Below, piece by piece: positions 2,742 to 64,000 of a stretch of 64,000 nt of DNA; positions within the stretch are counted from its first letter, which is position 1; each line of letters begins with the position of its first letter. The position numbers and the translations under genes were made by a program. The stretch comes from Squalus acanthias (lineage: Eukaryota), in the NCBI GenBank assembly GCA_030390025.1, contig CM059432.1, positions 36,582,001 to 36,646,000 of the forward strand. The letters run 5' to 3'. The notes below the pieces were generated by a model that was not told where the DNA came from, did not search any database, and saw nothing but the letters and a program-made list of their open reading frames with translations.

Positions 2742-2932
2742 AAGAACATAAGAAATAGGAGCAGGAGTAGGCCAATTGGCCCCTCGAGCCTGCTCCGCCA
2801 TTCAATAAGATCATGGCTGATCTGATCCTAACCTCAAATCTAAAGAACACAAGAAGTAAGAGCAGGACCCGGCCACTCAGCCCCTGGGCCCGCTCCGCCA
2901 CCCACAGGGCCCTGACCGATCCGAACTCAGCC

Positions 2933-5819
2933 TCATGTCCAATTTCCTGCCCGCTCACCGTAACCCCTAATTCCCTTTACCTCTAGGAAACTATCTATTC
3001 CTGTTTTAAATTTATTTAATGATGTAGCTTCCACAGCTTCCTGGGGCAGCAAATTCCACAGACCTACTACCCTCTGGGTGAAGAAGTTTCTCCTCATCTC
3101 AGTTTTGAAAGAGCAGCCCCTTATTCTAAGATTATGCCCCCTAGTTCTAGTTTCACCCATCCTTGGGAACATCCTTACCGCATCCACCCGATCAAGCCCC
3201 TTCACAATCTTATATGTTTCAATAAGATCGCCTCTCATTCTTCTGAACTCCAATGAGTAGAGTCCCAATCTACTCAACCTCTCCTCATATGTCCACCCCC
3301 TCATCCCCGGGATTAACCGAGTGAACCTTCTTTGTACTGCCTCGAGAGCAAGTATGTCTTTTCTTAAGTATGGACACCAAAACTGTATGCAGTATTCCAG
3401 GTGCGGTCTCACCAATACCTTATATAACTGCAGCAATACCTCCCTGTTTTTATAATCTATCCCCCTAGCAATAAAAGCCAACATTCCGTTGGCCTTCTTG
3501 ATCACCTGCTGCACCTGCATACTAACTTTTTGATTTTCTTGCACTAAGACCCCCAGATCCCTTTGCACTGCAGTACTTTCCAGTTTCTCGCCATTAAGAT
3601 AATAACTTGCTTTCTGATTTTTCCTGCCAAAGTGCATAACCTCACATTTTCCAATATTGTATTGCATCTGCCAAATCTCCGCCCACTCACCCAGCCTGTC
3701 TATATCCCCTTGTAGGTTTTTTATGTCCTCCTCACTTTCTACTTTCCCTCCCATCTTTGTATCATCTGCAAACTTTGATATGTTACACTCGGTCCCCTCC
3801 TCCAAATCGTTAATATAGATTGTAAAGAGTTGGGGACCCAGCATCGACCCCTGCAGAACACTACTGGTTGCCAGTCCGAGAATTAACCATTTATCCCAAC
3901 TCTCTGCTTCCTGTTAGATAACCAATCCTCCACCCATACCAGAATATTACCCCCAATCCAGTGATTTTTTATCTTGAGCAATAATCTTTTATGTGGCACC
4001 TTGTCGAATGCCTTCTGGAAGTCTAAATACACTACGTCCACTGGTTCCCCTTTATCCACCCTGTACGTTATGTCCTCAAAGAACTCAAGCAAATTTGTCA
4101 GACATGACTTCCCCTTCATAAAGCCATGCTGACTTTGTCCTATAAATTATGTTTATCTAAATGTTCCGTTACTGTCTCCTTAATAATAGACTCCAAAATT
4201 TTACCCACCACAGATGTTAGGCTAACTGGTCTATAATTTCCAGCCTTCTGCCTACTACCCTTTTTAAATAAGGGTGTTACATTAGCAGTTTTCCAATCTG
4301 CCGGGACCTTTGCTGAGTCCAGGGAATTTTGGAAAATTATTACCAAAGCATCCACAATCCCTACTGCCACTTCCCTCAAGACCCTAGGATGTAAGCCATC
4401 AGGTCCAGGGGATTTATCCGCCTTGAGTCCCATTATTTTACTGAGTACCAATTCCTTAGTGATTTTAATCGTATTTAGCTCCTCCCCCACTAGAGCCCCC
4501 TGTTTGTCCAGTGTTGGGATATTCTTAGTGTCCTCTACCGTAAAGACTGAAACAAAATATTTGTTCATCATTTTTGCCATCTCCATGTTTCCCACCATTA
4601 ATTTCCCGGTCTCATCCTCTAAGGGACCTACGTTTGCCTTAGCCACCCTTTTTCTTTTTATATAACTATAGAAACTCTTGCTATCTGTTTTTATATTTTT
4701 TGCTAATTTATTTTCATAATCTATCTTCCCTTTCTTAATCAATCCTTTAGATACTTTTTGCTGTCTTTTGAAGACTTCCCAATCTTCTATCCTCCCACTA
4801 AGTTTGGCTACCTTATATGTCCTTGTTTTTAGTCGGATACTATCCTTAATTTCTTTACTTAGCCACGGAAGGCTGTCATTTCTTTTACACCCTTTTTTCC
4901 TCAGTGGAATATTTTTTTTTTGAAAGTTGTAAAATAACTCCTTAAATGAACACCACTGCTCATGTACCGTCTTACCCTTTAATCTATTTTCCCAGTCCAC
5001 TTTAATCAATTCCGCTCTCATACCATCATAGTCTCCTTTATTCAAGCTCAGTACGCTTGTTTGAGAACCAACCTTCTCACCCTCTAATTGGATATGGAAT
5101 TCAACCATGTTATGGTCACTCATTCCAAGGGGATCCTTAACTAGGACATTATTAATTAATCCTGACTCATTACACAGGACCAGGTCCAAGGTTGCTTGCC
5201 CCCTTGTAGGATCAGTTACATACTGCTCAAGAAATCCATCCCTAATACACTCAATAAACTCTTCCTCAAGGCTGCCCTGCCCAATTTGATTTGTCCAGTT
5301 AATATGATAGTTAAAATCCCCCATAATTATAGCTGTTCCCTTATTACATGCCCCAACTATTTCCTGATTAATACTTCTTCCAGCAGAGTTGCAACTATTA
5401 GGAGGCCTATATACTACTCCCACTAGTGTTTTTTTCCCCTTATTATTCCTTATCTCCACCCAAACTATTTCATTATCCTGATCCTTTGACCCAATATCAT
5501 TTCTCTGTATTACAGTGATTCCTTCCTTTATTAACATAGCCACCCCACCTCCCCTTCCTTCCTGCCTGTCCTTCCTGATTGTTAAATACCCTGGCATATT
5601 TAGTTCCCAGTCGTTGTCACCCTGCAGCCATGTTTCTGTAATGGCCACAAGATCATATCCATACGTAGTTATTTGTGCCGTTAACTCGTCCATTTTGTTA
5701 CGAATGCTACGTGCATTCAGATAAAGAACTTTCAAATATGTTTTGTGACACTTAGTTCCTGCTTTTTCCTTTTTTAACACTTTACCTTTTACTCCATACC
5801 TTCTGTCCCTTCCTGACAC
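2933..5819 (-). pseudogene. CR1 ORF2 (APE endonuclease plus reverse transcriptase), broken near 4140 and 3845-3885
   Basis: ORFs 4140-5819, 3883-4119 and 2933-3844 join into one typical CR1 ORF2. Confidence 0.92.
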
Positions 5820-20834: not shown

Positions 20835-22030
20835 TAACAACAATAACAACTTGTATTTATATAGCGCCTTTAACATAGTATTTATATAGCGCCTTTAACG
20901 TAGTAAAACGTCCCAAGGCACTGCACAGGAGTATTTTAAGACAAAAAATTTGACACCGATCCACATAAGGATAAATTAGGGCAGGTCAGAAATGGGGATG
21001 TTCGCTGATGACTGCACAGTGTTCAGTGCCATTCACAACTCCTCAGATAATGAAGTAGCCCATGCCCGCATGCAACAAGACCTGGACGACATTCAGGCTT
21101 GGGCTGATAAGTGGCAGGTAACATTCGCACCACAGAAGTACCAGGCAATGACTATCTCCAACAAGTGAGAGTCTAAACACCGCCCCTTGACTTTCAGTGA
21201 CATTACCATCACCGAATCCCCCACCATCAACATCCTGGGGGTCACCATTGACCAGAAACTCAACTGGACCAGCCACATAATTACTGTGGCAACAAGAGCA
21301 GGTTAGAGGCTAGGTATTTTGTGGCAAGTGTCTCACCTCCTGACTCCCCAAAGCCTTTCTACCATCTACAAGGCACAAGTAAGGAGTGTGATGGAATACT
21401 GTCCACTTGCCTGGATGAGTGCAGCTCCAACAACACTCATGAAGCTCGACACCATCCAGGACAAAGCAGCCTGCTTGATTGGCACCGCCTCTACCACCTT
21501 AAACATTCACACTCTCCACCACCGGCGTACCGTGGCTGCAGTGTGTACTATCTACAAGATGCACTGCAGCAACTCGCCAAGGCTTCTTCGGCAGCACCTC
21601 CCAAACCCGCAACCTCTTCCACCTAGAAGGACAAGGGCAGCAGACGCATGGGGACACCACCACCTCCAAGTTCCCCTCCAAGTTATACATCATACTGACT
21701 TAGAAGTATATCGCCGTTCCTTCATCGTCGCTGAGTCAAAATCCTGGAACTCCCTACCTAATAGCACTGTGGGAGTACCTTCACCACACGGACTGCAGCG
21801 GTTCAAGAAGGCAGCTCACCACCACCTTCTCAAGGGCAATTAGGGATGGGCAATAAATGCTGGCCTTGCCAGCGACACCCACATCCCATAAAAACAAATT
21901 TTTTAAAAAGTGACCAAAAGCTTGGTCAAAGAGGTAGGTTTAAGGAGCGTCTTAAAGGAGGAAAGAGAGTTAGCGCGGCGGACAGGTTTAGGCAGGGAAT
22001 TCCAGAGCTTAGGGCCTAGGCAACAGAAGG
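20835..22030 (-). mobile_element. L2-type 3' fragment, itself split by a LINE at 20985-21910
   Basis: caacaacttgtatttatatagcgcc tail; continues at 21910 with gtgaccaaaagcttggtcaaagagg. Confidence 0.7.
20985..21910 (+). mobile_element. 5'-truncated LINE of a second CR1/L2-superclade family (Zenon-like)
   Basis: GMFADD and STIYKAQVRSVMEY; tail gggatgggcaataaatgctggccttgccagcgac..ccacatccc; same family at 40900-42120, 45472-47170, 58238-64000. Confidence 0.85.
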
Positions 22031-27084: not shown

Positions 27085-27960
27085 CCTCAACACAACCAGA
27101 GCGGGGCAATCCTAAGCCTGAGTCACATGGGCATTCCTAAACCTTAGCCAGGGAGGGGCAGTCCCAAACCGGAGCCAGGGAGGGGCAGTCCTAAACCTGA
27201 GCCAGGGTGGGGCAGTCCTAAACCTGAGCCAGGGAGGGGCAGTCCTAAGCCTGAGTCACATGGGCATTCCTTAACCTGAGCCAGGGAGGGGCAGTCCCAA
27301 ACCGGAGCCAGGGAGGGGCAGTGCTAAACCTGAGCCAGGGTGGGGCAGTCCTAAACCTGAGCCAGGGAGGGGCAGTCCTAAACCTGAGCCAGGGAGGGGC
27401 AGTCCTAAACCTGAGCCAGGGAGGGGCAGTCCTAAACCTGAGCCAGGGAGGGGCAGTCCTAAACCTGAGCCAGGGAGGGGCAGTCCTAAACCTGAGCCAG
27501 GGAGGGGCAGTCCTAAACCTGAGCCAGGGAGGGGCAGTCCTAAACCTGAGCCAGGGAGGGGCAGTCCTAAACCTGAGCCAGAGGGGAGCATTCCTAAACC
27601 TGAGCCAGGGAGGGGCAGTCCTAAACCTGAGCCAGGGAGGGGCAGTCCTAAACCTGAGCCAGGGAGGGGCAGTCCTAAACCTGAGCCAGGGAGGGGCAGT
27701 CCTAAACCTGAGCCAGAGGGGGGCAGTCCCAAACCTGAGCCAGAGGGGGGCAGTCCCAAACCTGAGCCAGAGGGGGGCAGTCCCAAACCTGAGCCAGAGG
27801 GGGGCAGTCCCAAACCTGAGCCAGGGAGGGGCATTCCCAAACCTGAGCCAGGGAGGGGCAGTCCCAAACCTGAGCCAGAGGGGGGCATTCCCAAACCTGA
27901 ACACAGCCAGGGAGGGCCATTCCCAAACCTGGACATAGCCAGAGAGGGGCAATTTAAACT
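27085..27960 (+). repeat. 27-bp G-rich minisatellite (aaacctgagccagggaggggcagtcct), about 30 copies
   Basis: Directly visible; produces 9-aa periodic ORFs in several frames. Confidence 0.97.
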
Positions 27961-28296
27961 TGAATAATTGAATGAAACCTGCCTTTAATTGTCCCATTCC
28001 TTTTATTTTTGGTCTTTGCTCTTCTTGCATTGAAGGTTCTGTTTTTCCCAATCTAATGATCTTCCTTTTCTTGTAGTACGCAGCGTGGTGTTTTATAACT
28101 GGTACTGCTGTTGGTATAGTTGTAATATCTGCTTAACTGGACTGATTATTTTTCTCCACATAATTTTCTCTTGAGAATTTTAATCTTTAACTCTCTTGTA
28201 AGTCGTCTCACACACCATAGAGGAACCTCAACACCTTTTGAATTCTTTATTAAAAAGGAAACTGATCTAGAATTGATTTGTTCCAATGTGTCTTAG

Positions 28297-28389: not shown

Positions 28390-29642
28390 GTGAGTATTGG
28401 CTTTTGGGCTCTCTTTACACTAACCTCCTTCCATTTCAGTGCTGTCACTCGGCTTATTTAGTCTTTTAGTACCAATATAATGTAGGAAAAAGTTGCACTT
28501 ACAAGAAGTGTATCAGACAACATGAGTTAATTCATCACCTACCACGGCAACCACCGCTAGTGACGGGTCTGTAACCTCCAGTACCTCACCTTAATATTGT
28601 ACAACTCCAAGTACAGCCTACAGACAGTTCCAGTGGACACGGTCTGAAAATTTCACAGACTTTACACTGGGTGGGTGTCCTGACTACAGCCTGTTGGCCA
28701 ATGCAGCCCTTGAACCCTGCCACTCCAGCTCACAAAGCCTTGTATTTCTTATTTGCTGGTTTGCTCTATTAGAATTTTGTGGGCCTGGAGGTCAGGAAAG
28801 AACTGTCCTTAGTGCTGGTGGATCAATCCTAAATCAGACCTGTTAGAATCAGCAACTTTCAAGGCGATGGAGATAGAGCGGCCGAGTGGGACTAAGTGGA
28901 TAGCTCTTTCATAGAGTCAGCACGATGGGCTGAATGGCCTCCTTCTGTGCTGTAAGATTCTATGATTAGATATACACAAATTAACAGGAGCATAGATTTA
29001 AATTTAAGGTGGCCTCTGAGGCTCCATGGTATACACCCAAGTATCCCACGAAGACAAAGGCTTGGACACTCCTGCTTTACTGAAATCCTAGTGACAGCAC
29101 TGCATTTCCATGCCAAGGCTGCTGTATGTTGTGGTGTGAACACATTAATGGGGTGAGTGCAGGGGATACTAATCTGTTAAATCCTACAGCTGCCTTTTAG
29201 CATTTCACTGCTAAATAAGTCATTCGCTGTTCTTCTGCTACTTTGGACTTGGTTCACACAGTACTTCTACCAGGCGAGCGGCACGGAAAGAAGAGGGGAG
29301 TGGCCGACTCGGTCTCTGATTGGATGCCTCGTCTGTGTTGAGCTGGCTGATCTTAGATAGGTTAGCAGTATTGGGGAAGCTACTGTTCAACACACTGCCG
29401 TCCCTAATCACTGTCCACTCAACTCCTGCTGGGAACTTGTGTGTGGTGGTAGGATTGGCCTCGACTGAGATGCCCCCATCCCAGACGATGGCGCTGTTGA
29501 GGTTCACACGGGAGAATGGTGAGACATTGAGAGGCACCTGGCGTCTGTGGGAACCAACTCCAGTAATTGTCGGAGTCTTCAGGAGAGGAGAGGAGGAAAG
29601 AGAATTGACTGAATTTGGTAGAAATGCTACTTTTACCATGAA

Positions 29643-29935
29643 TATGGTGGTGTGGTGGTTTTGGTAGAGGACTAGCAACCCAAAGGTCATGACTTCAAAT
29701 CCCACCATGGCAAGTGTGAAATTTAATTGAATAAATCTGGTTATTTATGAGCTAGCAATGTCCTTCAGCAAAGGGAACCTGCTATCCTTATCCAGTCTGG
29801 CCGACACCCTCTGAAGTGGTGTTCAGGTGTAAGGACTGTAGCAGTTTACATAGAAGGCCCGCCGCTAACTTCTGAACCCAACTATGGATGGGGAATAAAA
29901 GCAACCTTGCCAGCATTGCTCTCTTCCCAAGCACA
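29643..29935 (+). mobile_element. Old SINE sharing head and tail with the Zenon-like LINE
   Basis: ttcaaatcccaccatggcaag head, aatgtccttcagcaaagggaacc middle, gatgggaataaaagcaaccttgccagc tail. Confidence 0.55.
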
Positions 29936-32369
29936 ATTCCTTTTTTTAAATAGTAGCTAAGCAGAGATGGGTCAGCTGTGGTTTTCAATTGCATGACCAG
30001 CAAGCCCTACCGTGTGCAGCCAGGTATTCATCCCTGTAGTGTGCATTTCCCCAGAGAGCGATGAGTGGTCATGGCTAGGATATGTGGTTTGGCATGGTGC
30101 AATATTCCACCCATTTCTGCACATATTTGCTGCCCGAGTATCGTACTTATACATACAAAGGCCCAGAGGCAGTGAGTGTACTGATTACTGAATGGTAACA
30201 GATGATCACGCCAAGTTCTGGCAGGCCAGCAAGCCTTGTCTGATGCCCCTGTACTCTTAATTAAGAGTTACTTTTGCTCTTCCACCTCTTTAATTAAAAA
30301 AAAATCAGACTTCCATTGTGGTTTTCTACTGGAGGATTTTTTTAAAAATCTGTTTATCTGTTGGTACTTCTGAAGCTTTTTTTTTTAAAAAAAAAACAAA
30401 ATGATCTGAAAAGAGTTTATAATCTTAGCTGTGGAAAAATCGGGTTATGTAAAGGTACCCTTAGTGTAGTGCCGGTCAGCTCTGGGAGCTGCCCAGACTC
30501 GTATCTAAATGGGTTTCCCTATCATATATACTTGTGTATAAGGTGAGACAACCTTACTTTCTAGCCAACAATCTACAGTGGTGGGGAGAAATTGATGATC
30601 CAGGTGTAATATCCAGTCACTACACTCTCCAGGAAATTTGTCTTCAATATTCATGTGTTGCCACCACTGTGCACAGACAAGGAGGGGGAGATCATAGATG
30701 GGAGAACGTGACTGGGCCAGGAACAAGTGAGTGTTCCCTCCTGCCACTCGGACCTGGATTGAAGCTTATGCCCTGCTTTCAACCCCCAAAGAGTGACCTA
30801 AATTTCTAGTCATCTATTTGAGTGAACATGGTGTATTTGTTATTGTACCTCTGTGCATTCTATTGTTTTTTTTTGGTATGTTTGCCATCTTGCATCCCCT
30901 CCTAGAATTTGGGCCTTTTTTTTGGAGTTTGGGGGGGTGGCGGGGGGGATGTTACAAATGATGCTGATCACTGCACTGGTTTCGGGTATTCTACTGAATA
31001 AACTTGAGCTTTTGTCCTTTGTGGAAGCAGTTACCAATGCCATGTTGTCGGAGATGGAGATCAAGGCTTCAGTTTATGGCATTTAGGAACTGAAAAGGAA
31101 GCCATTTGGCTCATTTGGGGTAGACTCATAGGGCAAAACTGGAAAATATAAACTGATTTACGTATAAGACTCTTGGATCATTATTTTGTCTGTGCACATA
31201 ATTGACCTCAATGACCCTGGTCTAAGGGAGGGGGGTGAGAAATCAGCTCCTGATCGCCCTCCAGTGGGCTTTGCTGGAAAATGAATGTGCTCACATCAGG
31301 TGAGGACAGGATGCCTAATGTCGAATAGCCTAATGAAGCTCACTAAGCTGACATGACGAATGGCCACTTGGGCAAGGTATCATCGACAACTTAGCACGCT
31401 TAGAACTGTATCCTAGCGAGGCGTCAACCTCTTCAGGGTGAAGGGGAGAGAATTGGTCAGGAAAAATAGATAGCATTCATTAGGAGCAGGTCAGTGGGAA
31501 GTCAACCAACTGGTCTGTGGAAATGGTGGTTCACCTAAGCACATGTACCTGTGCAAACACTTCTTAATGTAAACAAAAAATGGTTTTAAATCACTGGGTA
31601 AAATGCATTTTTCAAGAACCAGTAACAAAATGAACACGAGAGCCATACACAATCAGAAAACAGCTCTAGAGCTCACAGTGGAACCAACAGACGTTATGTG
31701 AGTTTAAAAAAAAATATTCAAATTACCTTTCAGCTTAGCTTATTGTGCTCGGCCTTTCATTGTAAATTTTGCTTTTGACTCCTGTGTTTTGATTTGTTTT
31801 TAAATCGCAGCCACTGTTGTCAATCTGAATTACCATAGTGGTGGCTGACCTTATTCTGAAAGAATTTTCCTCTCACTCCTCTCCAATACTTTGCACATCA
31901 TTTCCACAGGACTAATATTCAAGACCATTCTCAGCAGTCCAAAAGTGACTGTGTAACAGTGCCTTCATTTGGGCCCTTTGAGCCCATTATCGTCTTTTTT
32001 TTCTGTGCCAACTTGTCACAGACATAAGTAATACCTGTTTATATATTGGGTTTAGTGCGACACTAAGCCCTGGCTCCAGACAATAACCCTAGTGTAAATT
32101 TCCTGGATTTACTAAAGCCAGCAGGTTCACTCCAGCTTTGCTGGAAAATCATTGTGCTCACGTCAGGTGAGGACAGGATGCCTAATGTTGAATAGCCTAG
32201 TGAAGCTCGCTAGGCTGACATGACGAATGGCCACTTGGGCAAGCTTAGAACTGTATCCTAGCGAGGCGTCATTGGCTGCACAAGAACCATGCATTGAGAG
32301 CCAACGGCTTTGGCACTCTGTTAAACCCGATATATGGTTGGGTTCATTGGTGTGAAAAGGCCATTCAGA

Positions 32370-32911
32370 CTTTTTTTTATATTCATTCTCGGGCTGTGGG
32401 TGTCACTGACGGGCAATGATCCCTCTAAGCTGCGCAGCAATCTGCAAGATCCCGTGCAGGCCGCTCACTGTCTTTTCCATTGTAAATACCACGCATGCGC
32501 AGAAATTTAAAAGGACTGTGCATTAAAAGAAACAGGCCACGCAGAACAAAGCACAGCTTACAGGGAACATTGCTGGCATGGTCCGTATTTATTGCCTGTC
32601 CTTAGTTGCCCTGAGAAGATGGTGATGGGCCACCTTGCAGTTTGGTACAACTAAGTGGCATGCTAGGCCACTTCAGAGGGCAGTTAAGAGTCAACCACAT
32701 TGGTGTGGGACTGGAGTCACATATAGGCCAGACCAGGCTTCTTCCCTAAAGGATTTTAGTGAACCAGTTGAGTTTTTACGATAATCAGACAGCTTCATGA
32801 TCACTTTTACTGAGACCAGCTCTTTATTTTAATTGAACTCAAATAGTGAGATTTGAATCTAGGCCTATTGGATTACTGGTCCAGTAACATAACCACTACT
32901 CTACCGTACCC
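32370..32911 (-). mobile_element. tRNA-headed SINE made of the 5'UTR plus 3' tail of the Zenon-like LINE; contains a hAT MITE at 32414-32572
   Basis: Reverse strand aligns by eye to 58238-58570, then switches to the LINE tail seen at 21805-21890 and 47065-47150. Confidence 0.75.
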
Positions 32912-40172: not shown

Positions 40173-40899
40173 TGCTGTGACTCTCCGAACTGGCTCAGTG
40201 TCAATTCCCAGGTCCACTGCATGTGTAAAAATGTCATGATGTGGGGCATTTGTTCACAACAGGAACTCAGCACATGCACAGTCAAAAAAGATGTCCATTT
40301 TCTGAATCTGCCTCCAACAAGCCTAGGGAGTATTGAGCGTGGGAGAGGGGAACATGTTGTTTTACCTATCTCTTTGATCAAGCTTTTGTTCACCTGCCCT
40401 AATTTCTCCTTATGTGGCTCGGTGTCAAATTTTTTGTCTTTTAATACTCCTGTGAAGCACCTTGAGAGGTTTTACTACGTTAAAGGCGCTATATAAATAC
40501 AAGTTGTTGTTGTTTTGATATTGCTCTGCAGGGATTCATGGGGATTTTTGTGTCCCAAAGTGGCTGCCAGACTCTCTCTCTTCCCTCCTTTCTCCTTCGC
40601 TCCCTATTTATCCCGCTCTGTTTCATTCTTTGAATCTCCCTTCAATCTACAAGCTTTCAAAATCCAATTTTGCCATCAGCTAACTGCTGATTCTCAATTT
40701 GTCTGGTTTCTCCCACTCATTCCTACTCGGCAGTGCCCTAAAGTGTGGACCCTGGCCATTCACCCAGGTTTATCAATAATTTAACAGCTAAGTAGATAAC
40801 CAGGGATACCCAGTAAATAATCGGTTACCCAATGAATAAGCAACAGGAAGAGTCATCAATATTGACATCAGGCAACACCTAACTCTCCAATCTCAGTTC

Positions 40900-42120
40900 G
40901 GGTTCCACCGTACCACTGTATTCTAAACCTCTTCATAGCCTTGATCCAGGTGTGTTTACAAGACCTGAATGCCAGTCCAGGAGAAGTGAGAGTAGCTATT
41001 TTCAACATCAAGGTAGTACTTGGCTAAGTAGGGCACCAAGGAGCTCTACCAAAACTGAGCTCAGTGGGGGTTAAGGGGAAAAACCTTATAGTGGCTGTTG
41101 TCCTGGCACACAGGAAGATGGTCATGGTTGTTGGCGGCCAATCGTCGCAGTCCCAGGACATTGCTCCAAGAGGGTCCTCAGCCCAACCATCTCCAGCTGC
41201 TTCATCAATGATCTTCCCTCCATCAAAGATCAGTTTGCTAATGATTCTTTTGAGTGTTCTTCTCCATTTACAACTCCTATAATAATGAAGCAGCCCATGC
41301 CAGCCTATAGCAGGACCTGGACAACATCCAGAGATTAGCTGATGGCAAGTGGCAGGTAACATTCACGCCACAAAAGTGCCAGGTTATGATAATCTCCTAC
41401 AAGAAAAAGCCCTTGGCCCAATCACCGAGTGTCTCACCATCATCATTCTGGGGGTCACCGTTGAGTGACCAAAAGCTTTGTTGGCTAGCCATATCAACAC
41501 CATGGCTTCAAGAACAGGGTAGAGGCTGGATACTCTGCGACAAGTAGTCACCTCCTGACCAACGTCCCTCATAAGTGGCACTGGCTCTTGCGCAGTCTGC
41601 CTCCCCCAGTGCGCAGCCCATTCAAATTTTTGCACATGTGCGGTATCTACAATAGAAAAGTTGGTGAGCAGCCTGCACCGGACCTTGCAGATGACTGCGC
41701 AGCTTAGCGGGAACGTTGCTCCTGACCCCTCCGAGCCTTTCCACCTTCTACAAGGCTCAAGCCAAGAGTGTGATGGAATGGCCTGGATGGATCCAGCTGC
41801 AACAACATTCAAAGCTTGACACCATCCAGGACAGCAGTTCGCTTAATTTGCACCCCTGCCGTGAACTCAATATCCACCACCGGCGCGCCATGGCTGCAGT
41901 ATGTACAATCTTCAGAATACACTGTAGCAACTCACCAAGATTACTGTGCCAGCCCCATGACATCCACCACCAAGGAGGACCAGAATAGCAATGTCATTGG
42001 AGCACCATCACAACAAGAACTGCTGCGTTCAAGAAGAACACAGTCCATCGCCACCATCTCGGGGCAGCTAGGAATGGGCCTTCACAGTGTCACCACATCC
42101 CAAGAACAAATATTTAATTT
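40900..42120 (+). mobile_element. Heavily decayed Zenon-like LINE with hAT MITE insertion
   Basis: LSTFYKAQAKSVME and KLDTIQD remnants; tail ccacatccc. Confidence 0.75.
41560..41718. mobile_element. hAT-type MITE
   Basis: caacgtccc...gggaacgttg TIRs; perfect 8-bp TSD ctcctgac (41552-41559, 41719-41726). Confidence 0.88.
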
Positions 42121-45169: not shown

Positions 45170-47232
45170 ATCCATGATTTGAGCACATATTCCAGACTGA
45201 CAACTTCAGTGCAGTACTGAGGGGGTGTTGCATGGTCAGAGATGCCGTCTTTCAGATGAGATATTAAACCGAGGGCCTGTCTGCCATAAATATCCTACGG
45301 CACTATTTGAAGTAAACCAGGGGAGTTCACCTGGTGTCCTGGCCAATTTTTATCCAACATCATTAACAGATCATCTCATCTTTTGTCTCATTGCTTTTTG
45401 TGGGACCTTGCTGTGCGCAAAATGACCGCTGCATTTCCCTACAATACAACAATGACAACACTTCAAAAGCATTCATCAGCAAAGTGATGGAAGGTGTCAT
45501 CGACAGTGCTATCAAGCGGCACTTACTCACCACTAACCTGCTCACTGATGCCCAGTTTGGGTTCCGCCAAGACCACTCGGCTCCTGACCTCATTACAGCC
45601 TTGGTCCAAACATGGACAAAGGAGCTGAATTCCAGAGGTGAGATGAGAGTGACTGCCCTTGACATCAAGGTAGCATTTGACTTAAATAAAAACAGAAAAT
45701 GCTGGAAATACTCAGCAGGTCAGGCAGCATCTGTGGAGAGAGAAACAGAGTTAACATTTCAGGTCGATGACCCTTTGTCAGAACTGGAAAAAGTTGGAGA
45801 TGGAACAGGTTTTTTAAGCAAGTGTAGGGGCAGGGGGAGGGGAGGAAAGAACAAAAGGGAAGGTCTGTGATCGGATGGAAGGCAGGAGAGATTAAGAAAC
45901 AAAAGGGATGATGGTGCAAGGCAAAAGGAGATGGTAATGGGACAAGTTAAGAAACAAAAGATGACTCTAGATGAAGTGTAAATGGCAATGCCAGAATGAT
46001 CGACAGCTGCCATGTGAGAGAATTTGACCGAGTGTGGCATCGAGGAGCCCTAGTAAAACTGAAGTCAATGGGAATCGGGGGGGAAAACTCTCCACTGGCT
46101 GGAGTCATACCTAGCACAAAGGAAGATGGTTGTAGTGGTTGAAGGTCAATCATCACAGCCCCAGGACATCGCTGCAGGAGTTCCTCAGGGCAGTGTCCTA
46201 GGCCCAACCATCTTCAGCTGCTTCATCAATGACCTTCCCTCCCACATAAGGTCAGAAATGGGGATGTTCGCTGATGACTGCACAGTGTTCAGCGCCATTC
46301 ACAACTCCTCAGATAATGAAGCAGTCCATGCCCGCATGCAACAAGACCTGGACGACGTTCTGGCTGGGGCTGATAAGTGGCAGGTAACATTTGTGCCACA
46401 GAAGTACCAGGCAATGACTATCTCCAACAAGCGAGAGTCTAACCATCGCCTCTTGACATTCAATGGCATTACCATCAACGAATCCCCCACCATCAACATC
46501 CTGGGCATCACCATTGACCAGAAACTTAGTTGGACCAGCCACATAAATACTGTGGCAACAAGAGCGGGTCAGAGGCTGGGTATTCTGCAGCGAGTGTCTC
46601 ACCTCCTGACTCCCCAAAACCTTTCCACCATCTACAAGGCACAAGTAAGGAGTGTGATGGAATACTCTCCACTTGCCTGGATGAATGCAGCTCCAACAAC
46701 ACTCAAGAAGCTCAACACCATCCAGGATAAAGCAGCCTGCTTGATTGGCACCCCATCCACCACCTTAAACATTCACTCCCTCCACCACCGGCGTACCGTG
46801 GCTGCAGTGTGTACCATCTACAAGATGCACTGCAGCAGCTGGCCAAGGCTTCTTCGGCAGCACCTCCCAAACCCACGACCTCTACCACCTAGAAGGACAA
46901 GGGTAGCAGGTGCTTGGAAACACCACCACCTCCAAGTTCCCCTCCAAGTCACACACCATCCTGACACCATCGCCGATCCTTCATTGTCACTGGGTCAAAA
47001 TCCTGGAACTCCCTACTTAACAGCACTGTGGGAGTACCTTCACCCCATGGACTGCAGCAGTTGAAGAAGGCGGCTCACCACCACTTTCTCAAGGGAAATT
47101 AAGGATGGGCAATAAATGCTGGCCTTGCCAACGACGCCCACATCCTATAAAAATGAATTTTTTTAAAAATTCATCGGCTTGAAGCGTGTTGGGACATCCC
47201 TGAGGTCATGAAAGGTGGTTTATAAATGCAAG
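45170..47232 (+). mobile_element. DeuSINE split by a Zenon-like LINE (45472-47170)
   Basis: Deu core at 45170-45470; tail resumes at 47170; attcatc repeated at both junctions; RT ORF 46126-47064. Confidence 0.8.
45682..46021 (-). mobile_element. Penelope-like element end with decayed minimal hammerhead ribozyme
   Basis: aaatgctggaaatactcagcaggtcaggcagcatctgtggagagag terminus; 7-bp TSD atttgac (45675-45681, 46022-46028). Confidence 0.7.
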
Positions 47233-47828
47233 GTTTTTTTTCCTTAACTAATCTATCCCCCTTCCCACCCTCACCGATCTGTCCCAATGTCCTTGGGAAC
47301 ACACGACTGGAATAGACCATTTCTATCCGCTGGGTGGGTAGGGGCAATCCAATTGGCCTCAGTACCCCTGGGTTCGGACTGAAAAGAAAATTAGCCAGGG
47401 TTCCCACTCTTGATTGCTGTGCAGCAATTCCTGCTGCAAAGTGGACAGGGGGATATCCGGTGAGGACAGAATCGGGCTTGGCTGTGATGCCTCACATGTT
47501 CAATTGGTTCACCCACACTCACTGCATCCTTGGAGGCGGAACCCCGCAACTTGCAAGGGGTGTGGGGAGAGGAAGGATAGACATATAAAAGCATAAATGT
47601 AGTTTTAACCTGTTACTCTTATTCCTTTCTATACTCTGACTATTCTGGCTCATTCCTTAAGGACGTCTCCTCAGTGACCAAAGATTACTCTCAGTCCATC
47701 AGTGCATTTGATTGTTTGAACCCTGAACATTTTTTTAAAAAATCTCTTGTGTATATATTTTGCATTTCATTTCACGCCCTCCTATAACAATGCACCATTG
47801 TACCCCCACCCCATAATTTTATTTTTAG

Positions 47829-56081: not shown

Positions 56082-56844
56082 ATGTTCAGATCACCGATGG
56101 TTTGCACTCCGAGCCAGGTGTGTGGAACCAGTGTGACCTGCACCTGATTCCAGAGCGGGTGTGTGATGTGACGGACATTGTGATTGATGTTTAATGATAT
56201 AGATTCTGCTATAGTTTAAAAAAAACACTGCAGTCCACTCCAGGGCCAACATATCATCCTCCCCCCTACACCCCGGCACCCCCCCCCCCCCCCCCCAATA
56301 AAAAGGGAACATGTTCGTGACTGCTGTGAGACTGGATGACTTTGGCTTTATTTAAGTAAAGGAGAGCCAGTGTTTGACGGTCAGCCTGCACGGGGTACTT
56401 CAAATGCTGACTGTCCTTTTAAAGTGGGAGTCTCACTTTCGGGACCTCCGTTGCAAAATCAGTTGCCAAGAAGTTGAATCCCTTTTGTTGGGTCAATTTT
56501 TGTTTTGAGAGAGAAAACTATTTTAGTTTAAAGCGACGTGATGCCCCAGCGGCACTGAGTTGAAAGGATCGGCGCTTTCTCACCACTAACTCTGCACTCA
56601 GTCGATGCTGCATACCTTGGGTTTGTGTCCCTGTGTTCACTAACAGTTCACCTCTCTCTCACTTCAGATCGGCGATTCCTTCAAACGCTGTCCCCTCCCC
56701 CGACCGCCGACAATGCATAAAACAAAAACAAATTCAGAAAAGAGAAATGGCAAAAGCACCTGCTGATCTTTGGTAACAAAAGGCAGGGACGAAAAAAGGC
56801 CATTGAGTCCTTCGTAGCGCATCCCTCCATACCCTAACACCACC

Positions 56845-57265
56845 TTTCCCTCCCCTCCCGATTCCCATCCCCTTTTTCTCCCTTCCCCTTCCTCTCCCCT
56901 CCCCTCCCTCTCCCCTCCCCTTCCTCTCCCCTCCCCTCCCTCTCCCCTCCCCTTTCTCTCCTCTCCCCTTCCTCTCCCTCTCCTCTCCCCTCCCCTTTCT
57001 CTCCTCTCCCCTTTCTCTCCTCTCCCTTTTCTCTCCTCTCCCCTTCCCTCTCCCCTCCCTCTCCCCTCCCCTTTCTCTCCCCTCCCCTCCCTCTCCCCTC
57101 CCCTCCCTCTCCCCTCCCCTTTCTCTTCTCTCCCCTCCCCTTTCTCTCTCCCCTCCCTCTCCCTTCCTCTCCCTCTCCCCTCCCCTCCCTCTCCCCTTCC
57201 TCTCCCATCCCCTTTCTCTCCCCTCCCCTCTCACTGCCCCTCCCCTTTCCTTTCCCCCCTCCCTC
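56845..57265 (+). repeat. About 420-bp polypyrimidine tract (ctcccct-like units)
   Basis: Directly visible. Confidence 0.95.
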
Positions 57266-57934
57266 AGCTACATTTTGGACTATTGCAGTCTGTAGGGAAC
57301 CTTGTCTGGCAGTTTATTCCAATCATTTTCATTCTTTAAAGAAATTCTTCCGAAAGTCTGTTACTTTTTTTTTCCCCACTAGTTCTAAATTTATTTTTGT
57401 GTTTTTTGGGGGTAGGGCCTGTGATGGTGAGACTCTAAAGGTCTCGAGATTTCAGTTTTTATTTCACTTGTGCCCTTTCAAAATTACTTTGTCGCTATTT
57501 TAACCGAACCATCACTTCTCAACGAAGGAATTTGATGAAGCTTTAAGCATCCGTCCACTAAAGTCACTGAGCGTAACTTCGAGACACGAATTCTTTACAA
57601 AAATTGACACTTCATTGTTGTTTCTACAACTTGAGATGAGAGAAGCGAGACTTTAAAAAAATAACCTGTTACTGAAGACCGAGGAACACGAGTTGATTTT
57701 TGTGTTTTCTGTGTTTTTTTGGAATCTATAAATGGATTTTAAAAGCAGTAAATGGCTCCAGCAGTGAGTGTCTGGGTGAGGTTGTACAGTATTTCTGCTG
57801 CTGCTGTTGTCCTTCCACACATTTAATATTCTGGAATTTTCTTCTCGCTTTTGCTATTTGGCCGCTGATGAGCACCACCACTGGCAGAACTCAATTCCCA
57901 TTGTTCGGTCCTTATTGTATAAGTAAAGGTTTGA

Positions 57935-57985: not shown

Positions 57986-58822
57986 TCTGAGGTTATGCCA
58001 TGTGTTTCTATAAAGTGTTACGGTGCGGCGGTCCTGCTGGGGCAGGCTGTTGAGATGTAGTGGTCCTGCTGGGGCAGGCTGTTGGGATACACTTCCTTGA
58101 CTGATTACCTCCAAGGGCCCAGTAGCTCAGGGGCAGTCATGTTTCTAACCAATATTCATCTGGTTTATCCATAACACTCTGCGGGGAGGGGGGGGGACAG
58201 AGTTCCATTTCTTCTCTGGTCTTGCTGTTAACTACAAGGGAACGGTAGCGTAGTGGTAATGTCACTGGGCTAGTAATCCAGAGGCCTGGACTAATAATCC
58301 AGAGACGTGAGTTCAAATCCCACCACGGCAGCTGGCGAATTTAAATTCAGTTAATTAAATAAATCTGGAATTAAAATAAAAGCTAGTATCAGTAATGGTA
58401 ACCATGAAACTATCGGATTATCGTAAAAACCCATCTGGTTCACTAATGTCCTTTAGGCGAAGGAATCTGGTCTGGCAGCCTATATGTGACTCCAGACCCA
58501 CAGCAATGTAGTTGACTCTTAACTGCCCTCTGAAATGGCCTAGCAAGTCACTCAGTTGTAACTAACCGCTACAAAACAAAATAATAAGAATGAAACCGGA
58601 CGGATCACCCGGCATCGACCTCGGCTACGGACACGGCAACGGCACACCCAACCCAGTCAAAGTCCTCACCAACATCTGGGGACTTGTGCCAAAATTGGGA
58701 GTGCTGTCCCACAGACTAGTCAAGCAACAGCCTGACATAGTCATACTCACAGAATCATACCTTTCAGCCAATGTCCCAAACTACACCATCACCATCCCTG
58801 GGAACAGGACAGACCCACCAAG

Positions 58823-59868
58823 AACATAAGAAATAGGAGCAGGAGTAGGCCAATCGGCCCTTCGAGCCTGCTCCGCCATTCAATAAGATCGTGGCTGATC
58901 TGATCCTCACCTCAAATCTAAAGAACACAAGAAGTAGGAGCAGGACCCGGCCACTCAGCCCCTGGGCCCGCTATGCCACCCACAGGGCCTTGACCGATCC
59001 GAACTCAGCCTCATGTCCAATTTCCTGCCCGCTCCCCGTAACCCCTAATTCCCTTTACTTCTAGGAAACTGTCTATTTCTGTTTTAAATTTATTTAATGA
59101 TGTAGCTTCCACAGCTTCCTGGGGCAGCAAATTCCACAGACCTACTACCCTCTGAATGAAGAAGTTTCTCCTCATCTCAGTTTTGAAAGAGCAGCCCCTT
59201 ATTCTAAGATTATGCCCCCTAGTTCTAGTTTCACCCATCCTTGGGAACATCCTTACCGCATCCACCCGATCAAGCCCCTTCACAATCTGATGTTTCAATA
59301 AGATCGCCTCTCATTCTTCTGAACTCCAATGAGTAGAGTCCCAATCTACTCAACCTCTCCTCGTATGTCGACCCCCTCATCCCGGGGATTAACCGAGTGA
59401 ACCTTCTTTGTACTGCCTCGAGAGCAAGTATGTCTTTTCTTAAGTATGGACACCAAAACTGTATGCAGTATTCCAGGTGCTGTCTCACCAATACCTTATA
59501 TAACTGTAGCAATACCTCCCTGTTTTTATAATCTATCCCCCTAGCAATAAAAGCCAACATTCCGTTGGCCTCCTTGATCACCTGCTGCACCTGCATACTA
59601 ACTTTTTGATTTTCTTGCACTAGGACCCCCAGATCCCTTTGCACTGCAGTACTTTCCAGTTTCTCGCCATTAAGATAATAACTTGCTCTCTGATTTTTCC
59701 TGCCAAAGTGCATAACCTCACATTTTCCAATATTGTATTGCATCTGCCAAATCTCTGCCCACTCACCCAGCTTGTCTATATCCCCTTGTAGGTTTTTTAT
59801 GTCCTCCTCACTTTCTACTTTCCCTCCCATCTTTGTATCATCTGCAAACTTTGATATGTTACACTCGC
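58823..59868 (-). mobile_element. Young 5'-truncated CR1, same subfamily as 2742-7165
   Basis: Nearly identical to 2742-3790, including the doubled 3' tail. Confidence 0.93.
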
Positions 59869-60905
59869 TCTGGAGGCACAGTGATATACAGTTGGGAAGG
59901 AGTGGCCCTGGGAGTCCTCAACATTGACTCCGGACCCCATGACGTCTCATGGCTTCAAGTCAAGCATAGGCAAGGAAACCTCCTGCTGATTACCACCTAC
60001 CGCCCTCCCTCAGCTGATGAATCAGTACACCGCCATGTTGAACACCACTTGGAAGAAGCACTGAGAGTAGCAAGGGCACAGAATATACGCTGGGTGGGGG
60101 ACTTCAATGTCCATCACCAAGAGTGGCTCGGTAGCACCACTACTGACCGAGCTGACCGAGTCCTGAAGGGCCTGCGAAAGGTGGTGAGTGAACCAACTAG
60201 AGGGAAAAACCTACTTGACCTCGTCCTCACCAATCTACCTGTCGCAGATGCATCTGTTCATGACAGCATTGGGGTAGCAGTGACCACCGCACAGCCATTG
60301 TGGAGACGAAGTACCATCTTCACACTGAGAACACCCTCCATTGTGTTGTGTGGCACTACCACCGTGCTAAATGGGATAGATTCAGAACAGATCTAGCAGC
60401 TCAAAACTGGGTATCCATGAGGCGCTGTGGGCCATCAGCAGCAGCAGAATTGTATTCCACCACAATCTGTAACCTCATGCCCCAGCATATCCCTCACTCT
60501 ACAATTACCACCAAGCCAGGGGACCAGCCCTGGTTCAATGACGAGTGTAGAAGAGCATGCCAGGAGCAGCACCAGGCGTACCTAAAAATGAGGTGCCAAC
60601 TTGGGGAAGCTGCAACACAGGACGACATGCATGCTAAAAAGCGGAAGCAGCATGCTATAGACAGGGCTAAGCGATCCCACAATCAACAGATCCGATCAAA
60701 GCTTTGCAGTCCTGCCATAATCCAGTCGTGAATGGTGGTGGACCATTAAACAACTAACGAAGGAGGAGGCTCCATGAATATCCCCATCCTCAATGATGGT
60801 GGAGCCCAACACGTGAGTGCAAAAGACACGGCTGAAGCGTTTGCAACCAACTTCAGCCAGAAGTGCCGAGTGGATGATCCATATCAGCCTCCTCCTGAGG
60901 TCCCC

Positions 60906-62058
60906 TGTAGGGGGGGGTGGGAGTGGTGGTAGGGGTCAGCCTTACCCCTGACTCAGTGAGCGGTTCGAATCGCTCCCACGCCCCAGGTTCAGACCTTGGA
61001 CTTATTTAGGGGTTGTGACTAAAGATGCAGTAGACAACAGGTTCCGATGAAAGAATTTTGACTTTTATTAGTAGAAAAAGGTAACAAACTTAAAACACAC
61101 TTAACACTTAAACAGGTTGGGGAACACACGGTACAAGCGAGGGAGAATGACAATATACAAAAAACCCTTATCCCTCCCAAAAACCCCACTATCTAGCTAG
61201 GTTTCGGTTTCAGGAGATCAGGGATAATGCTCACCAAACGGGTTTTAACAGTGCGAAATCCAGCCAGGTAAGTTGATTGCGATGGTGGTCTGGTCGTCGA
61301 GTGTCTTCCTGGAACGTGCTGCTTCTGGAACAGAGCCGAGAGGGAGCTGTGCGAGCGTTGTCAGAGAGTCCAGAGAGAGAGAGAGTCTTGGGGGTTAGGC
61401 CCCCAATTATACTTGTTCAGCCCCTTTGTCCTTTTTGCGCCAAAACCCCTTGCTAAAACGATTTTGTGTTGAAGTGATTTAGGTTTCAGTTGAGGCCTGT
61501 TCATTCCATTGTCTTGGTTCTGCGGGCTTGTTAAGTTTTGATGGGTTTAACTTGGTGTTAAATTGTCCTGAACTCCCTTCTTACTGAACTGTTGTAACTG
61601 CTTGATGGGCCTTCAATTATGCTAAATTGAAGTGGCCTTGTCAGAACCAAATCAAATCCTGGTCATTGTAAGACCTCGTTAACAGTAACGACTTTACTGA
61701 GTGTCAAATGGCTTGCGTCCTGTCGATCTGTTGTTTAATCGGAGTTTGCATTGTCCTCATGTTTTGGGTTTCTTGCTGGGCCTAGCACTCCTATCTTTAT
61801 GCATCTCTTTAATGGGTTCTGTGATAGGTTTTTCTGGTTCCTGTGTTTTGGGTGGGGCTGCCTTCTCCAGGGCCTATTGTCCAAATGTTAATGTTTGCTG
61901 GGGATTGAATTCCAGACATGTCCTTTTAAAATGCCAAAGCTTGGTTTTGGTCTTAAATTCCTTATGTTAGGCCCAAATGCATTTTTATCACTCTGGGGTA
62001 GTTCCAAAGTCCTTTTTCCTTAGATTTTTGGGGATCTGCAAATTTTGGAAACTTTACA
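60906..62058 (-). mobile_element. Solo LTR (1153 bp)
   Basis: TGTA...TACA termini, cccc target duplication, host LINE collinear across it; TATAAT near 61410 and AATAAA near 61065 on the minus strand. Confidence 0.8.
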
Positions 62059-62162
62059 CCCCACCATCACAGAAGCCAGTCTTCAGCCAATTCGATTCAC
62101 TCCACGTGATATCAAGAAACGGCTGAGTGCACTGGATACAGCAAAGGCTACGGGCCCCGACA

Positions 62163-63197
62163 ACATAGAAACATAGAAAATAGGTGCAGGAGTAGACCAT
62201 TCGGTCCTTCGAGCCATTCAATGCGTTCATGGCTGAACATGCTACCTCAGTACCCCATTCCTGCTTTCTCGCCATACCCCTTGATCCCCCTAGTTGTGAG
62301 TGTTATATCTAACTCCCTTTTGAATATATTTAGCGAACTGGCCTCAACAACCTTCTGTGGAAGAGAATTCCATAGATTCACCACTCTCTGGGTGAAGAAG
62401 TTCCTCCTCAGCTCAGTCTTAAATGGCTTCCCCTTAATCCTTAGACTGTGACCCCTGGTTCTAGTTTTCCCTAACATTGGGAACATTCTGCCCGCATCTA
62501 ATTTGTCTAAACCAGTCAGGATTTTAAATGTCTCTATAAGATCCCCCCTCATTCTTCTGAACTCCAGAGGATACAAGTTCAGTTGACCCAATCTTTCTTG
62601 ATATGTCAGTCCGGCCATCCCAGGAATCAATCTAGTGAACCTTCGCTGCACTCCCTCAATAGCAAGAATGTCCTTCCTTAAGTTAGGAGACCAAAACTGC
62701 AAACAATACTCCAGGTGTGGCCTCACCAAAGCCCTGTACAACTGCAGCATCACCTCCCTACTCCTGTACTCAAATCCCCTTGCTATGAAGGCCATCATTC
62801 CGTTTGCTTTCTTGACTGCCTGCTGCACTTGCATTCCCACCTTCAGTGACTGATGTACCATGACGCCCAGGTCTCGTTGCACCTCCCCTTTCCCTAACCT
62901 GCCACCATTCAGGTAATAGTCCGCCTCTCTATTTTTACCACCAAAGTGGATAACCTCACATTTATCCACATTGTACTTCATCTGCCATACATTTGCCCAT
63001 TCACCCAACCTGTCCAAGTCACTCTGTAGCCTCCTAGCCTCCCAATTTAGTGTCATCCGCAAATTTGGAGATATTACATTTAATCCCTTCGTCCAAATCA
63101 TTAATATATAATGTAAACAGCTGGGGTCCCAGCACCGAACCCTGCGGTACCCCGCTGGTCACTGCCTGCCATTCTGAAAAGTACCCATTTACTCCTA
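62163..63197 (-). mobile_element. 5'-truncated CR1 (HER1-like)
   Basis: ORF 62247-63101 RT C-terminus; tail catagaaacatagaaa; acat repeated at both junctions. Confidence 0.92.
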
Positions 63198-64000
63198 CAT
63201 CCCGGCTATCGTGCTGAAGACTTGTGCTCCAGAACTAGCCGCGCCTCTAGACAAGCTGTTCTAGTACAGCTACAACACTGGCATCTATCCGACAATGTGG
63301 AAAACTGCCCAGGTATGTCCTGTCCACAAAAAGCAGGACAAATCCAACCCGGCCAATTACCGCCCCATCAGTCTACTCTCAATCATCAGCAAAGTGATGG
63401 AAGGTGTCATCGACAGAGCTATCAAGTGGTACTTACTCACCAATGACCTGCTCACTGATGCCCAGTTTGGGTTCCGCCAAGACCACTCGGCTCCCAACCT
63501 CATTACAGCCTTGGTCCAAACATGGACAAAGGAGCTGAATTCCAGAGGTGAGGTGAGAATGACTGCCCTTCACATCAAGGCAGCATTTGACCGAGTCTGG
63601 CATGAAGGAGCCCTAGTAAAACTGAAGTCAATAGGAATTGGGAAAAATGCTCCACTGGCTGGAGTCATACCTAGCACAAAGGTAGATGGTTGTGGTGGTT
63701 GAAGGTCAATCATCACAGCCTCAGGACATCGCTGCAGGAGTTCCTCATGGCAGTGTCCTAGGCCCAACCATCTTCAGCTGCTTCATCAATGACCTTCCCT
63801 CCAACATAAGGTCAGAAATGGGGATGTTCGCTGATGACTGCACAGTGTTCAGCGCCATTCACAACTCCTCAGATAATGAAGCAGTCCATGCCTGCATGCA
63901 ACAAGACCTGGATGACGTTCAGGCTTGGGCTGATAAGTGGCAGGTAACATTCGTCCCACAGAAGTGCCAGGCAATGACTATCTCCAACAAGCGAGAGTCT

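Follow-up and report, generated by a model that had tools for sequence, protein, structure and literature searches.

A high-copy single-ORF LINE of cartilaginous fish with a tRNA-derived 5′ end and a putative Pol III promoter

In a stretch of 64,000 nucleotides of Squalus acanthias DNA (contig CM059432.1; hereafter the window), a LINE begins at position 58238 with a tRNA-derived head, which is followed by a leader and a single ORF for an APE endonuclease and a reverse transcriptase (RT). Contigs of three organisms showed that the head, the leader and the single ORF belong together as one unit of high copy number. On balance, we favour the reading that this is an autonomous, ORF1-less, Pol III-transcribed APE-RT LINE family of cartilaginous fish, CR1/Zenon-like and with a constant tRNA-derived 5′ end; Pol III transcription of the focal LINE itself is probable, judged from its sequence features. 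By its protein the family is a LINE; its promoter and ends appear SINE-like. An earlier note on this DNA had proposed a single-ORF LINE family carrying a SINE-type promoter. This proposal is supported by the high-copy junction and the sharp 5′ end, with the promoter function being predicted.

The head (58238–58330, forward strand) forms the 5′ end of the element, as delimited by an Rfam match and by contig ends. It contains a Pol III A box (TAGCGTAGTGG, 58246–58256), two tandem anticodon-like arms (58265–58302) and a Pol III B box (GTTCAAATC, 58311–58319), all on the forward strand, so that each part described for it beforehand could be located. The first arm (58265–58281) reads CTGGG-CTAGTAA-TCCAG with AGT at the centre of the loop, and the second (58286–58302) reads CTGGA-CTAATAA-TCCAG. 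Contig depth is high through both arms, and the arm duplication is therefore common in the LINE family. Further tandem repeats of the arm were observed in some contigs at 58265–58306 (joints going back 37–42 nt), indicating that arm number varies within the family. A scan of both strands of the 64 kb with an A+B box pattern gave a single match, the focal head. The Rfam tRNA family RF00005 matched 58245–58324 with 23.3 bits (E 0.071; gathering score = 29), and ARAGORN called no tRNA on the focal head. Because of the sub-threshold score and the missing ARAGORN call, the head is to be classified, by these sequence models, as tRNA-derived and not as a tRNA gene; a Thr(AGT) isotype is suggested by the anticodon loop only. 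Folding of the head, of the head of a short copy and of the 3′ end yielded z-scores of −0.6 to −1.1, leaving special structure unsupported.

The whole element is a single-ORF APE-RT LINE of about 3.25 kb with its 5′ end at 58238 and three later insertions, and it continues beyond position 64000; the 3′ part within the length of ~3,250 bp was supplied by a second copy in the window. Behind the head lies a leader or body (58331–58569, forward strand) common to short derivative elements, with 235 of 273 aligned columns identical to 32911–32637. The first piece of the single ORF (58506–58819, forward strand) was placed using the ORF list and an alignment to relatives, with the APE N-terminus from ~58662. 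Its stop-to-stop frame is 58566–58829 and its ATG is at 58590 (+352), in agreement with the claim of the earlier note that an ORF opens about 350 bp from the element start; a candidate earlier ATG is at 58506 within the shared body. Pfam gave no match for this first piece alone; it aligns to the APE N-terminus of the full-length relative P0008 (E 1e-9), by which the claim that the ORF reaches this N-terminus was borne out. A protein search with the first 76 residues of the ORF returned one relative, P0006, which begins at the same MKPDG.

In the 352-nt leader, seven ATGs precede 58590 and the longest ATG-started frame upstream of the ORF has 38 codons, so that no ORF1 is present; the two-ORF organization of vertebrate-type CR1, with ORF1 upstream of ORF2, is thus not found in the focal LINE. 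Also, the sequence between head and ORF contains neither T4 nor an A tail. Both the missing ORF1 and the missing SINE tail had been noted before. The ORF end previously placed at 58829 had to be given up, as this stop lies inside a later antisense insertion starting at 58820.

This insertion (58820–59866, reverse strand) comes from a CR1 LINE of the vertebrate type, of which it represents the 3′ part; it matches 2742–3794 at 97.3% and has RT C-terminal frames on the reverse strand. It is followed by the remaining APE endonuclease and linker, which are frameshifted (59867–60905, forward strand; PF14529, E 3e-7). The next insertion (60906–62058, no strand assigned) is solo-LTR-like by its TG...CA ends; it comprises 1,153 bp without a long ORF, with a 4-bp duplication, CCCC, at both sides, and no second copy was found within the window. 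Behind it, sequence and relatives revealed a short ORF piece ahead of the RT (62059–62164, forward strand). A second antisense CR1 3′ insertion (62165–63198, reverse strand; from ORFs and self-comparison of the window) separates it from the RT (63199–64000, forward strand; PF00078, E 8.5e-13 and 4.4e-15), which runs off the window. The ORF pieces are colinear with full-length relatives of 930–1,050 aa, and as in LINEs an APE endonuclease is followed by an RT in one polyprotein (PF14529, PF00078).

A one-off nesting, in which a 5′-truncated LINE inserted into a SINE at the focal locus, had been named in the earlier note as a refutation of the proposed family. Two short elements with the same head in the window fit such an event, as do the frequent nested insertions here, three of them within the focal element itself. 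The depth analysis covered four of 24 sequencing runs, which were aligned to 58140–58819 at 85% likeness. Three of them are contigs from organisms A, B and D; the fourth, raw reads (X22), gave just 12 aligned reads and is uninformative. Summed contig depth, which is not a copy number, was 0–54 in the flank and 0.35–11 × 10^5 in the five junction bins (58554–58668); the increase at 58238 was about 10,000-fold, and depth was kept high across the head-to-ORF junction in all three organisms. Ahead of 58238, 200 (X3) and 299 (X9) contigs carry unrelated letters (agreement 0.33); the element has a sharp 5′ end at this position. The same junction was found at another locus in a protein model of Heterodontus francisci (P0001), in which the body and then the ORF start follow in one frame, a weak match (E 9e-4). 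With a high-copy junction and this second locus, one-off nesting is very unlikely, to the point of being barely credible, and the ORF at the focal locus is complete to the N-terminus instead of truncated.

The contigs also gave information on the variability of the junction. Behind ~58560 the contig forms diverge, with loose ends in three runs. Among the 24 pieces listed of 122,917, none covered the whole of 58140–58819; one of them, which spans 58523–58648 and departs from the focal copy by 12 letters and 6 gaps, is another copy. Among the 18 loose-end rows listed of 2,229, none had loose ends ahead of a place between 58561 and 58662, and the contigs that are loose before 58663 run on into the same linker; they mark a small deletion in the focal copy. 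In part because of this deletion, depth in X4 and X9 (organisms B and D) was several times higher at the APE-start bins than at those of the junction, and it is possible that other 5′ ends also feed this depth. At both in-frame stops of the focal copy (58510 and 58563), most of the depth in three runs has other letters. The ORF may therefore begin within the shared body, at ATG 58506, which would favour a short form derived from the long form. As a separate observation, an organism B contig covers the unique flank (58140–58266), to which it shows about nine differences, and it seems to extend 29 nt into the head; the insertion may thus be shared between species.

Further copies were detected in the window, and as typical for LINEs they are dispersed, mostly 5′-truncated and have a common 3′ end. 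One 5′-truncated copy (45470–47169, forward strand, interrupted at 45682–46024) supplies the 3′ end and has 394 of 412 positions identical to the focal RT. A second one (20983–21909, forward strand) was identified by self-comparison of the window; the family copies are about 96% alike. Two short elements were found by alignments. In the first (32374–32911, reverse strand), which has one anticodon arm, head and body are matched from 32911 on up to focal position 58569, where they are joined to the LINE 3′ end; its tail scored 71 against this 3′ end versus 43 for the best of 1000 shuffles. The tail carries a palindromic insert and is without a terminal T run. The second (29640–29950, forward strand) is older and has a different junction. 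Every part of these SINE-like short elements is found in the LINE, and they look like derivatives consisting of head and 3′ end of the LINE.

Several other repeats were seen in the window. A related LINE family at 40894–42120 is 69% identical; it is missing its 5′ end, and its tail is similar, with T5A5 as the last letters. Palindromic, MITE-like inserts are located at 32405–32570, 41570–41719 and 2507–2741, one of them in the short element tail and a related one within the LINE copy at 40894–42120. A different SINE at 45300–45469 and 47170–47235 is split by the truncated LINE copy at 45470–47169; by eye we take it to be Deu-like. An identification of the short element as SacSINE1 was set aside; by eye, the SINE split by the truncated copy looks more Deu-like. 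A long pyrimidine-rich simple repeat is present at 56840–57270 and a tandem array of ~80 bp at 27096–27963.

Close protein matches to the ORF came from Heterodontus, Heptranchias, Mobula and Scyliorhinus, pointing to a cartilaginous fish as host. The RT is 45–54% identical to invertebrate relatives of 930–1,050 aa and 31–36% identical to the vertebrate-type CR1 of the window. In an RT tree of 40 rows, built without named (labelled) reference sequences, it groups with short-ORF invertebrate LINEs (support 94/90, not starred), far from the CR1 of the window. We presume that the focal LINE falls into the CR1-Zenon class of RepeatMasker. This class is present in the whale shark according to the accessible part of 10.1101/443036, and a hagfish CR1-7_EBu is listed in the accessible part of supplement 2 of PMC7245038.

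A tRNA-like head was not seen in the relatives with leader DNA (L001, L003, L006), and none of the four relatives scanned had an Rfam tRNA match. Upstream of the 48 relatives whose leader covers 200 nt or more, no A+B pair was present; this zero is of limited power, since the decayed short copy at 32911 likewise escaped the scan. Similarly, ARAGORN found 0 tRNAs at 60 of 130 relative loci, which is uninformative since the same tool misses the focal head. Comparison of head and body by blastn with the 130 relative loci gave one 31-nt T-arm match, and comparison with five MAGs gave one 38-nt match; viral contigs were without relatives of the LINE. The metagenome (best 80 of 537) and genome (50 loci) scans returned only invertebrate-type relatives with 27–48% identity and no shark copies. 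As the closest fetched relatives are without the head, it was probably acquired, and by this comparison the gain probably took place in the cartilaginous-fish lineage. The earlier note had offered a promoter either captured from a SINE or ancestral to one, and both look partly true: the head-less closest relatives speak for capture, and the short elements, as likely derivatives of head and 3′ end, speak for the ancestral part. Two observations were made on the database records. Many GTDB MAG records among L081–L130 carry animal LINE contigs due to host contamination. NCBI shark gene models (P0001, P0002, P0007, P0010, P0019; e.g. CWC25, CSL4, anoctamin-7) include LINE ORF pieces, which are probably annotation artefacts.

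The shortest Pol III terminators given in the accessible text of PMC8466645 are TTTT and TVTTT. Read once from end to end (3,248 bp), the element has 0 TTTT and 0 TVTTT on its sense strand, and 18 and 10, respectively, on its antisense strand; two CR1 copies of the window have 7 and 15 T4 as well as 10 and 12 TVTTT per 2.9 kb. The earlier note had suggested to look for T4+ terminators, and the sense strand being free of them until the terminal T run supports transcription by Pol III, as far as can be predicted from sequence. For the 2,610 coding bp, synonymous redraw gives 3.9 T4 where the element has 0 (P 0.013), and 18.7 T3 where it has 6 (0/1000 redraws); for Phe, TTT:TTC is 3:13. Of 82 invertebrate relatives with an ORF of at least 600 aa, drawn from the 130 loci of the two scans, 0 had zero T4 (median observed/expected 1.0).

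A less likely alternative accepts the head as family-wide and attributes the coding RNA to Pol II, initiated in the leader or by host read-through; the A and B boxes would then be a passenger of a captured SINE 5′ end and the scarcity of T runs compositional. According to the accessible parts of PMC10886601 and PMC5786205, LINEs are transcribed by Pol II, and 5′ switching is described as common among them in the accessible part of 10.1101/2022.11.04.512097. The compositional part is favoured by shuffles that keep codons or dinucleotides, against which the absence of T4 is not significant (codon-order shuffles, expected 1.8, P 0.14; dinucleotide shuffles, P 0.30). The T content of the LINE (0.196) is the lowest of the compared set, and the T4 depletion is in large part due to it. 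A CR1 control is mildly depleted in T4, too (3 vs 6.7, P 0.04), the relative L086 with a T content of 0.20 and a single T4 is nearly as low as the focal LINE, and a single internal T4 is present in the copy at 20983. The 953-aa relative L086 (34–2892) stems from a MAG with contamination, and its 5′ end lies outside the contig. Against a merely compositional effect stand the 3-fold depletion of T3 at synonymous sites, the absence of the weak TVTTT terminators and the 2.5–11.7 T4 per kb in the head-less same-clade relatives L003, L006 and L001. Also against this alternative, the element begins exactly at the head and the boxes are intact.

The 3′ ends bear on the choice of polymerase as well. 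In three of the four family 3′ ends in the window, T6–7 followed by A3–5 is located exactly 47 nt after AATAAA. These are the ends of the copies at 45470–47169 (AATAAA 47111, T7A5 47158) and 20983–21909 (AATAAA 21852, T6A5 21899) and of the short element at 29640–29950 (AATAAA 29894, T7A3 29941); the background is 20 T5+A3+ sites per strand in 64 kb. By sequence, these three ends correspond to the T+ SINE type with AATAAA, Pol III terminator and A tail. The AATAAA near the end would also fit Pol II polyadenylation, but the sole T run being terminal and in register in 3/4 ends speaks against the Pol II reading. The As behind the T run may belong to the tail or to the target DNA, and next to old A tails T runs can become longer (accessible text of PMC8466645), so that the terminal T run is a suggestive signal for a Pol III stop.

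In the preferred reading, Pol III would start at ~58238 from the internal promoter, which would be copied with each full-length insertion. It would then read 3.25 kb without a terminator and stop at the T6–7 run 47 nt after AATAAA, and the terminated transcript may receive an A tail like T+ SINE RNAs. Translation from ATG 58590 or 58506 would have to proceed without a normal cap by a cap-independent or low-efficiency route, presumably the weakest step; a cap, as provided by Pol II, would solve it. In LINEs, APE nicks the DNA and the RNA is copied by RT through target-primed reverse transcription, with copies being mostly 5′-truncated. The RNA of the focal LINE would be copied in this way, yielding mostly 5′-truncated copies, and the short elements of head and 3′ end would use the same LINE enzyme. 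The head may have been gained by a template switch or a fusion with a SINE, probably in this lineage. Counting against Pol III reading is that Pol III elements span 100–1,263 bp, a range tied to processivity (Kojima 2024, accessible part). For the complete scheme of a Pol III-transcribed coding LINE with captured tRNA promoter, terminator-purged strand, T+ SINE-like end, cap-independent translation beginning within or right behind the SINE-like body, and SINE-yielding internal deletions, the chances are close to balanced and lean slightly against it, and we put it forward tentatively.

Uncapped RNA with many upstream ATGs is expected to be translated poorly, as would then apply to an uncapped focal RNA with its seven upstream ATGs. 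This points to another explanation, which we consider quite improbable: both polymerases, or a split of roles, in which Pol III would provide the template and the enzyme would act in trans from a capped RNA of other copies or of a sister family, the headed form being partly non-autonomous. The related family at 40894–42120, with its 69% identity and similar tail, would be at hand within the window. However, the ORF pieces are colinear with and complete relative to full-length relatives, and the copies are about 96% alike. Moreover, T runs are avoided at synonymous sites, not in the protein, as expected if one RNA serves as template and mRNA.

Compared with known systems, the focal LINE resembles CR1-group single-ORF LINEs in its APE-RT polyprotein, but the CR1-group relatives L001, L003 and L006 are without a tRNA head and have internal T4 runs. 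With tRNA-derived SINEs (SINE2) it shares the A/B-box head at the 5′ end, whereas these are non-coding elements of 100–700 bp and the focal element, at 3.25 kb and encoding APE-RT, is neither short nor non-coding. By eye, the body gave no match to the printed hagfish Deu, Meta (SINE2-5_EBu) and UCON3 bodies. MetaSINEs have tRNA-Thr-like heads and CR1-type tails (PMC4824008, accessible part); a 66-bp Meta domain follows their tRNA-Thr-like head, and the focal head type agrees. B2, Dip and Ves, which are T+ SINEs, share AATAAA, T run and A-rich end with the focal family, but are described in mammals in the accessible text of PMC8466645. Bov-tA, CoeSINE4 and SINE2-1_EC resemble the short elements in combining a head with LINE 5′ and 3′ parts. 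In the Bov-tA type, however, the head was added after internal deletion of the LINE, whereas here a full-length CR1-group LINE carries it, and the donors of such bipartite SINEs are only RTE and Vingi as opposed to the CR1-group donor here (PMC5786205, accessible part). SacSINE1/CmiSINE with L2-2_CM are cartilaginous-fish tRNA SINEs with a tail common with a LINE, as here, and are set apart by their description, with only tail homology to the LINE reported in the accessible part of PMC5499810. Cassandra, Helenus and Ajax (TRIMp3) are likewise non-SINE retrotransposons with a small-RNA-derived Pol III promoter; these belong to the LTR type, are non-autonomous, do not exceed 1,263 bp and encode no protein, in contrast to the coding focal LINE (PMC10886601, accessible part).

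Motif searches of full texts and supplements gave no identification of the body of the short element. Searches of an open-access literature library revealed no full-length LINE that codes for protein and bears a tRNA head, and the accessible parts of PMC7245038, PMC3747384, PMC11481361 and PMC5804259 do not describe one. Known from the accessible parts of the literature are chondrichthyan SINE-LINE pairs sharing their tails, heads on deleted LINEs of the RTE and Vingi type, and LTR elements that are non-autonomous and have a Pol III promoter.

According to the rule stated in the accessible parts of PMC10886601 and PMC5786205, LINEs use Pol II and code for proteins, while SINEs use Pol III and are non-coding. 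If the preferred reading is true, a high-copy Pol III head together with a full APE-RT ORF would break this rule. It would also put the length limit assumed for Pol III retroelements to the test and provide a natural case of translation from uncapped RNA. For the origin of SINE bodies, the short elements suggest a route in which a single LINE, not of the RTE or Vingi clade, contains head, body and tail. Internal-deletion products of such a LINE would then be ready-made SINEs, so that a SINE could be born without later capture of a head.
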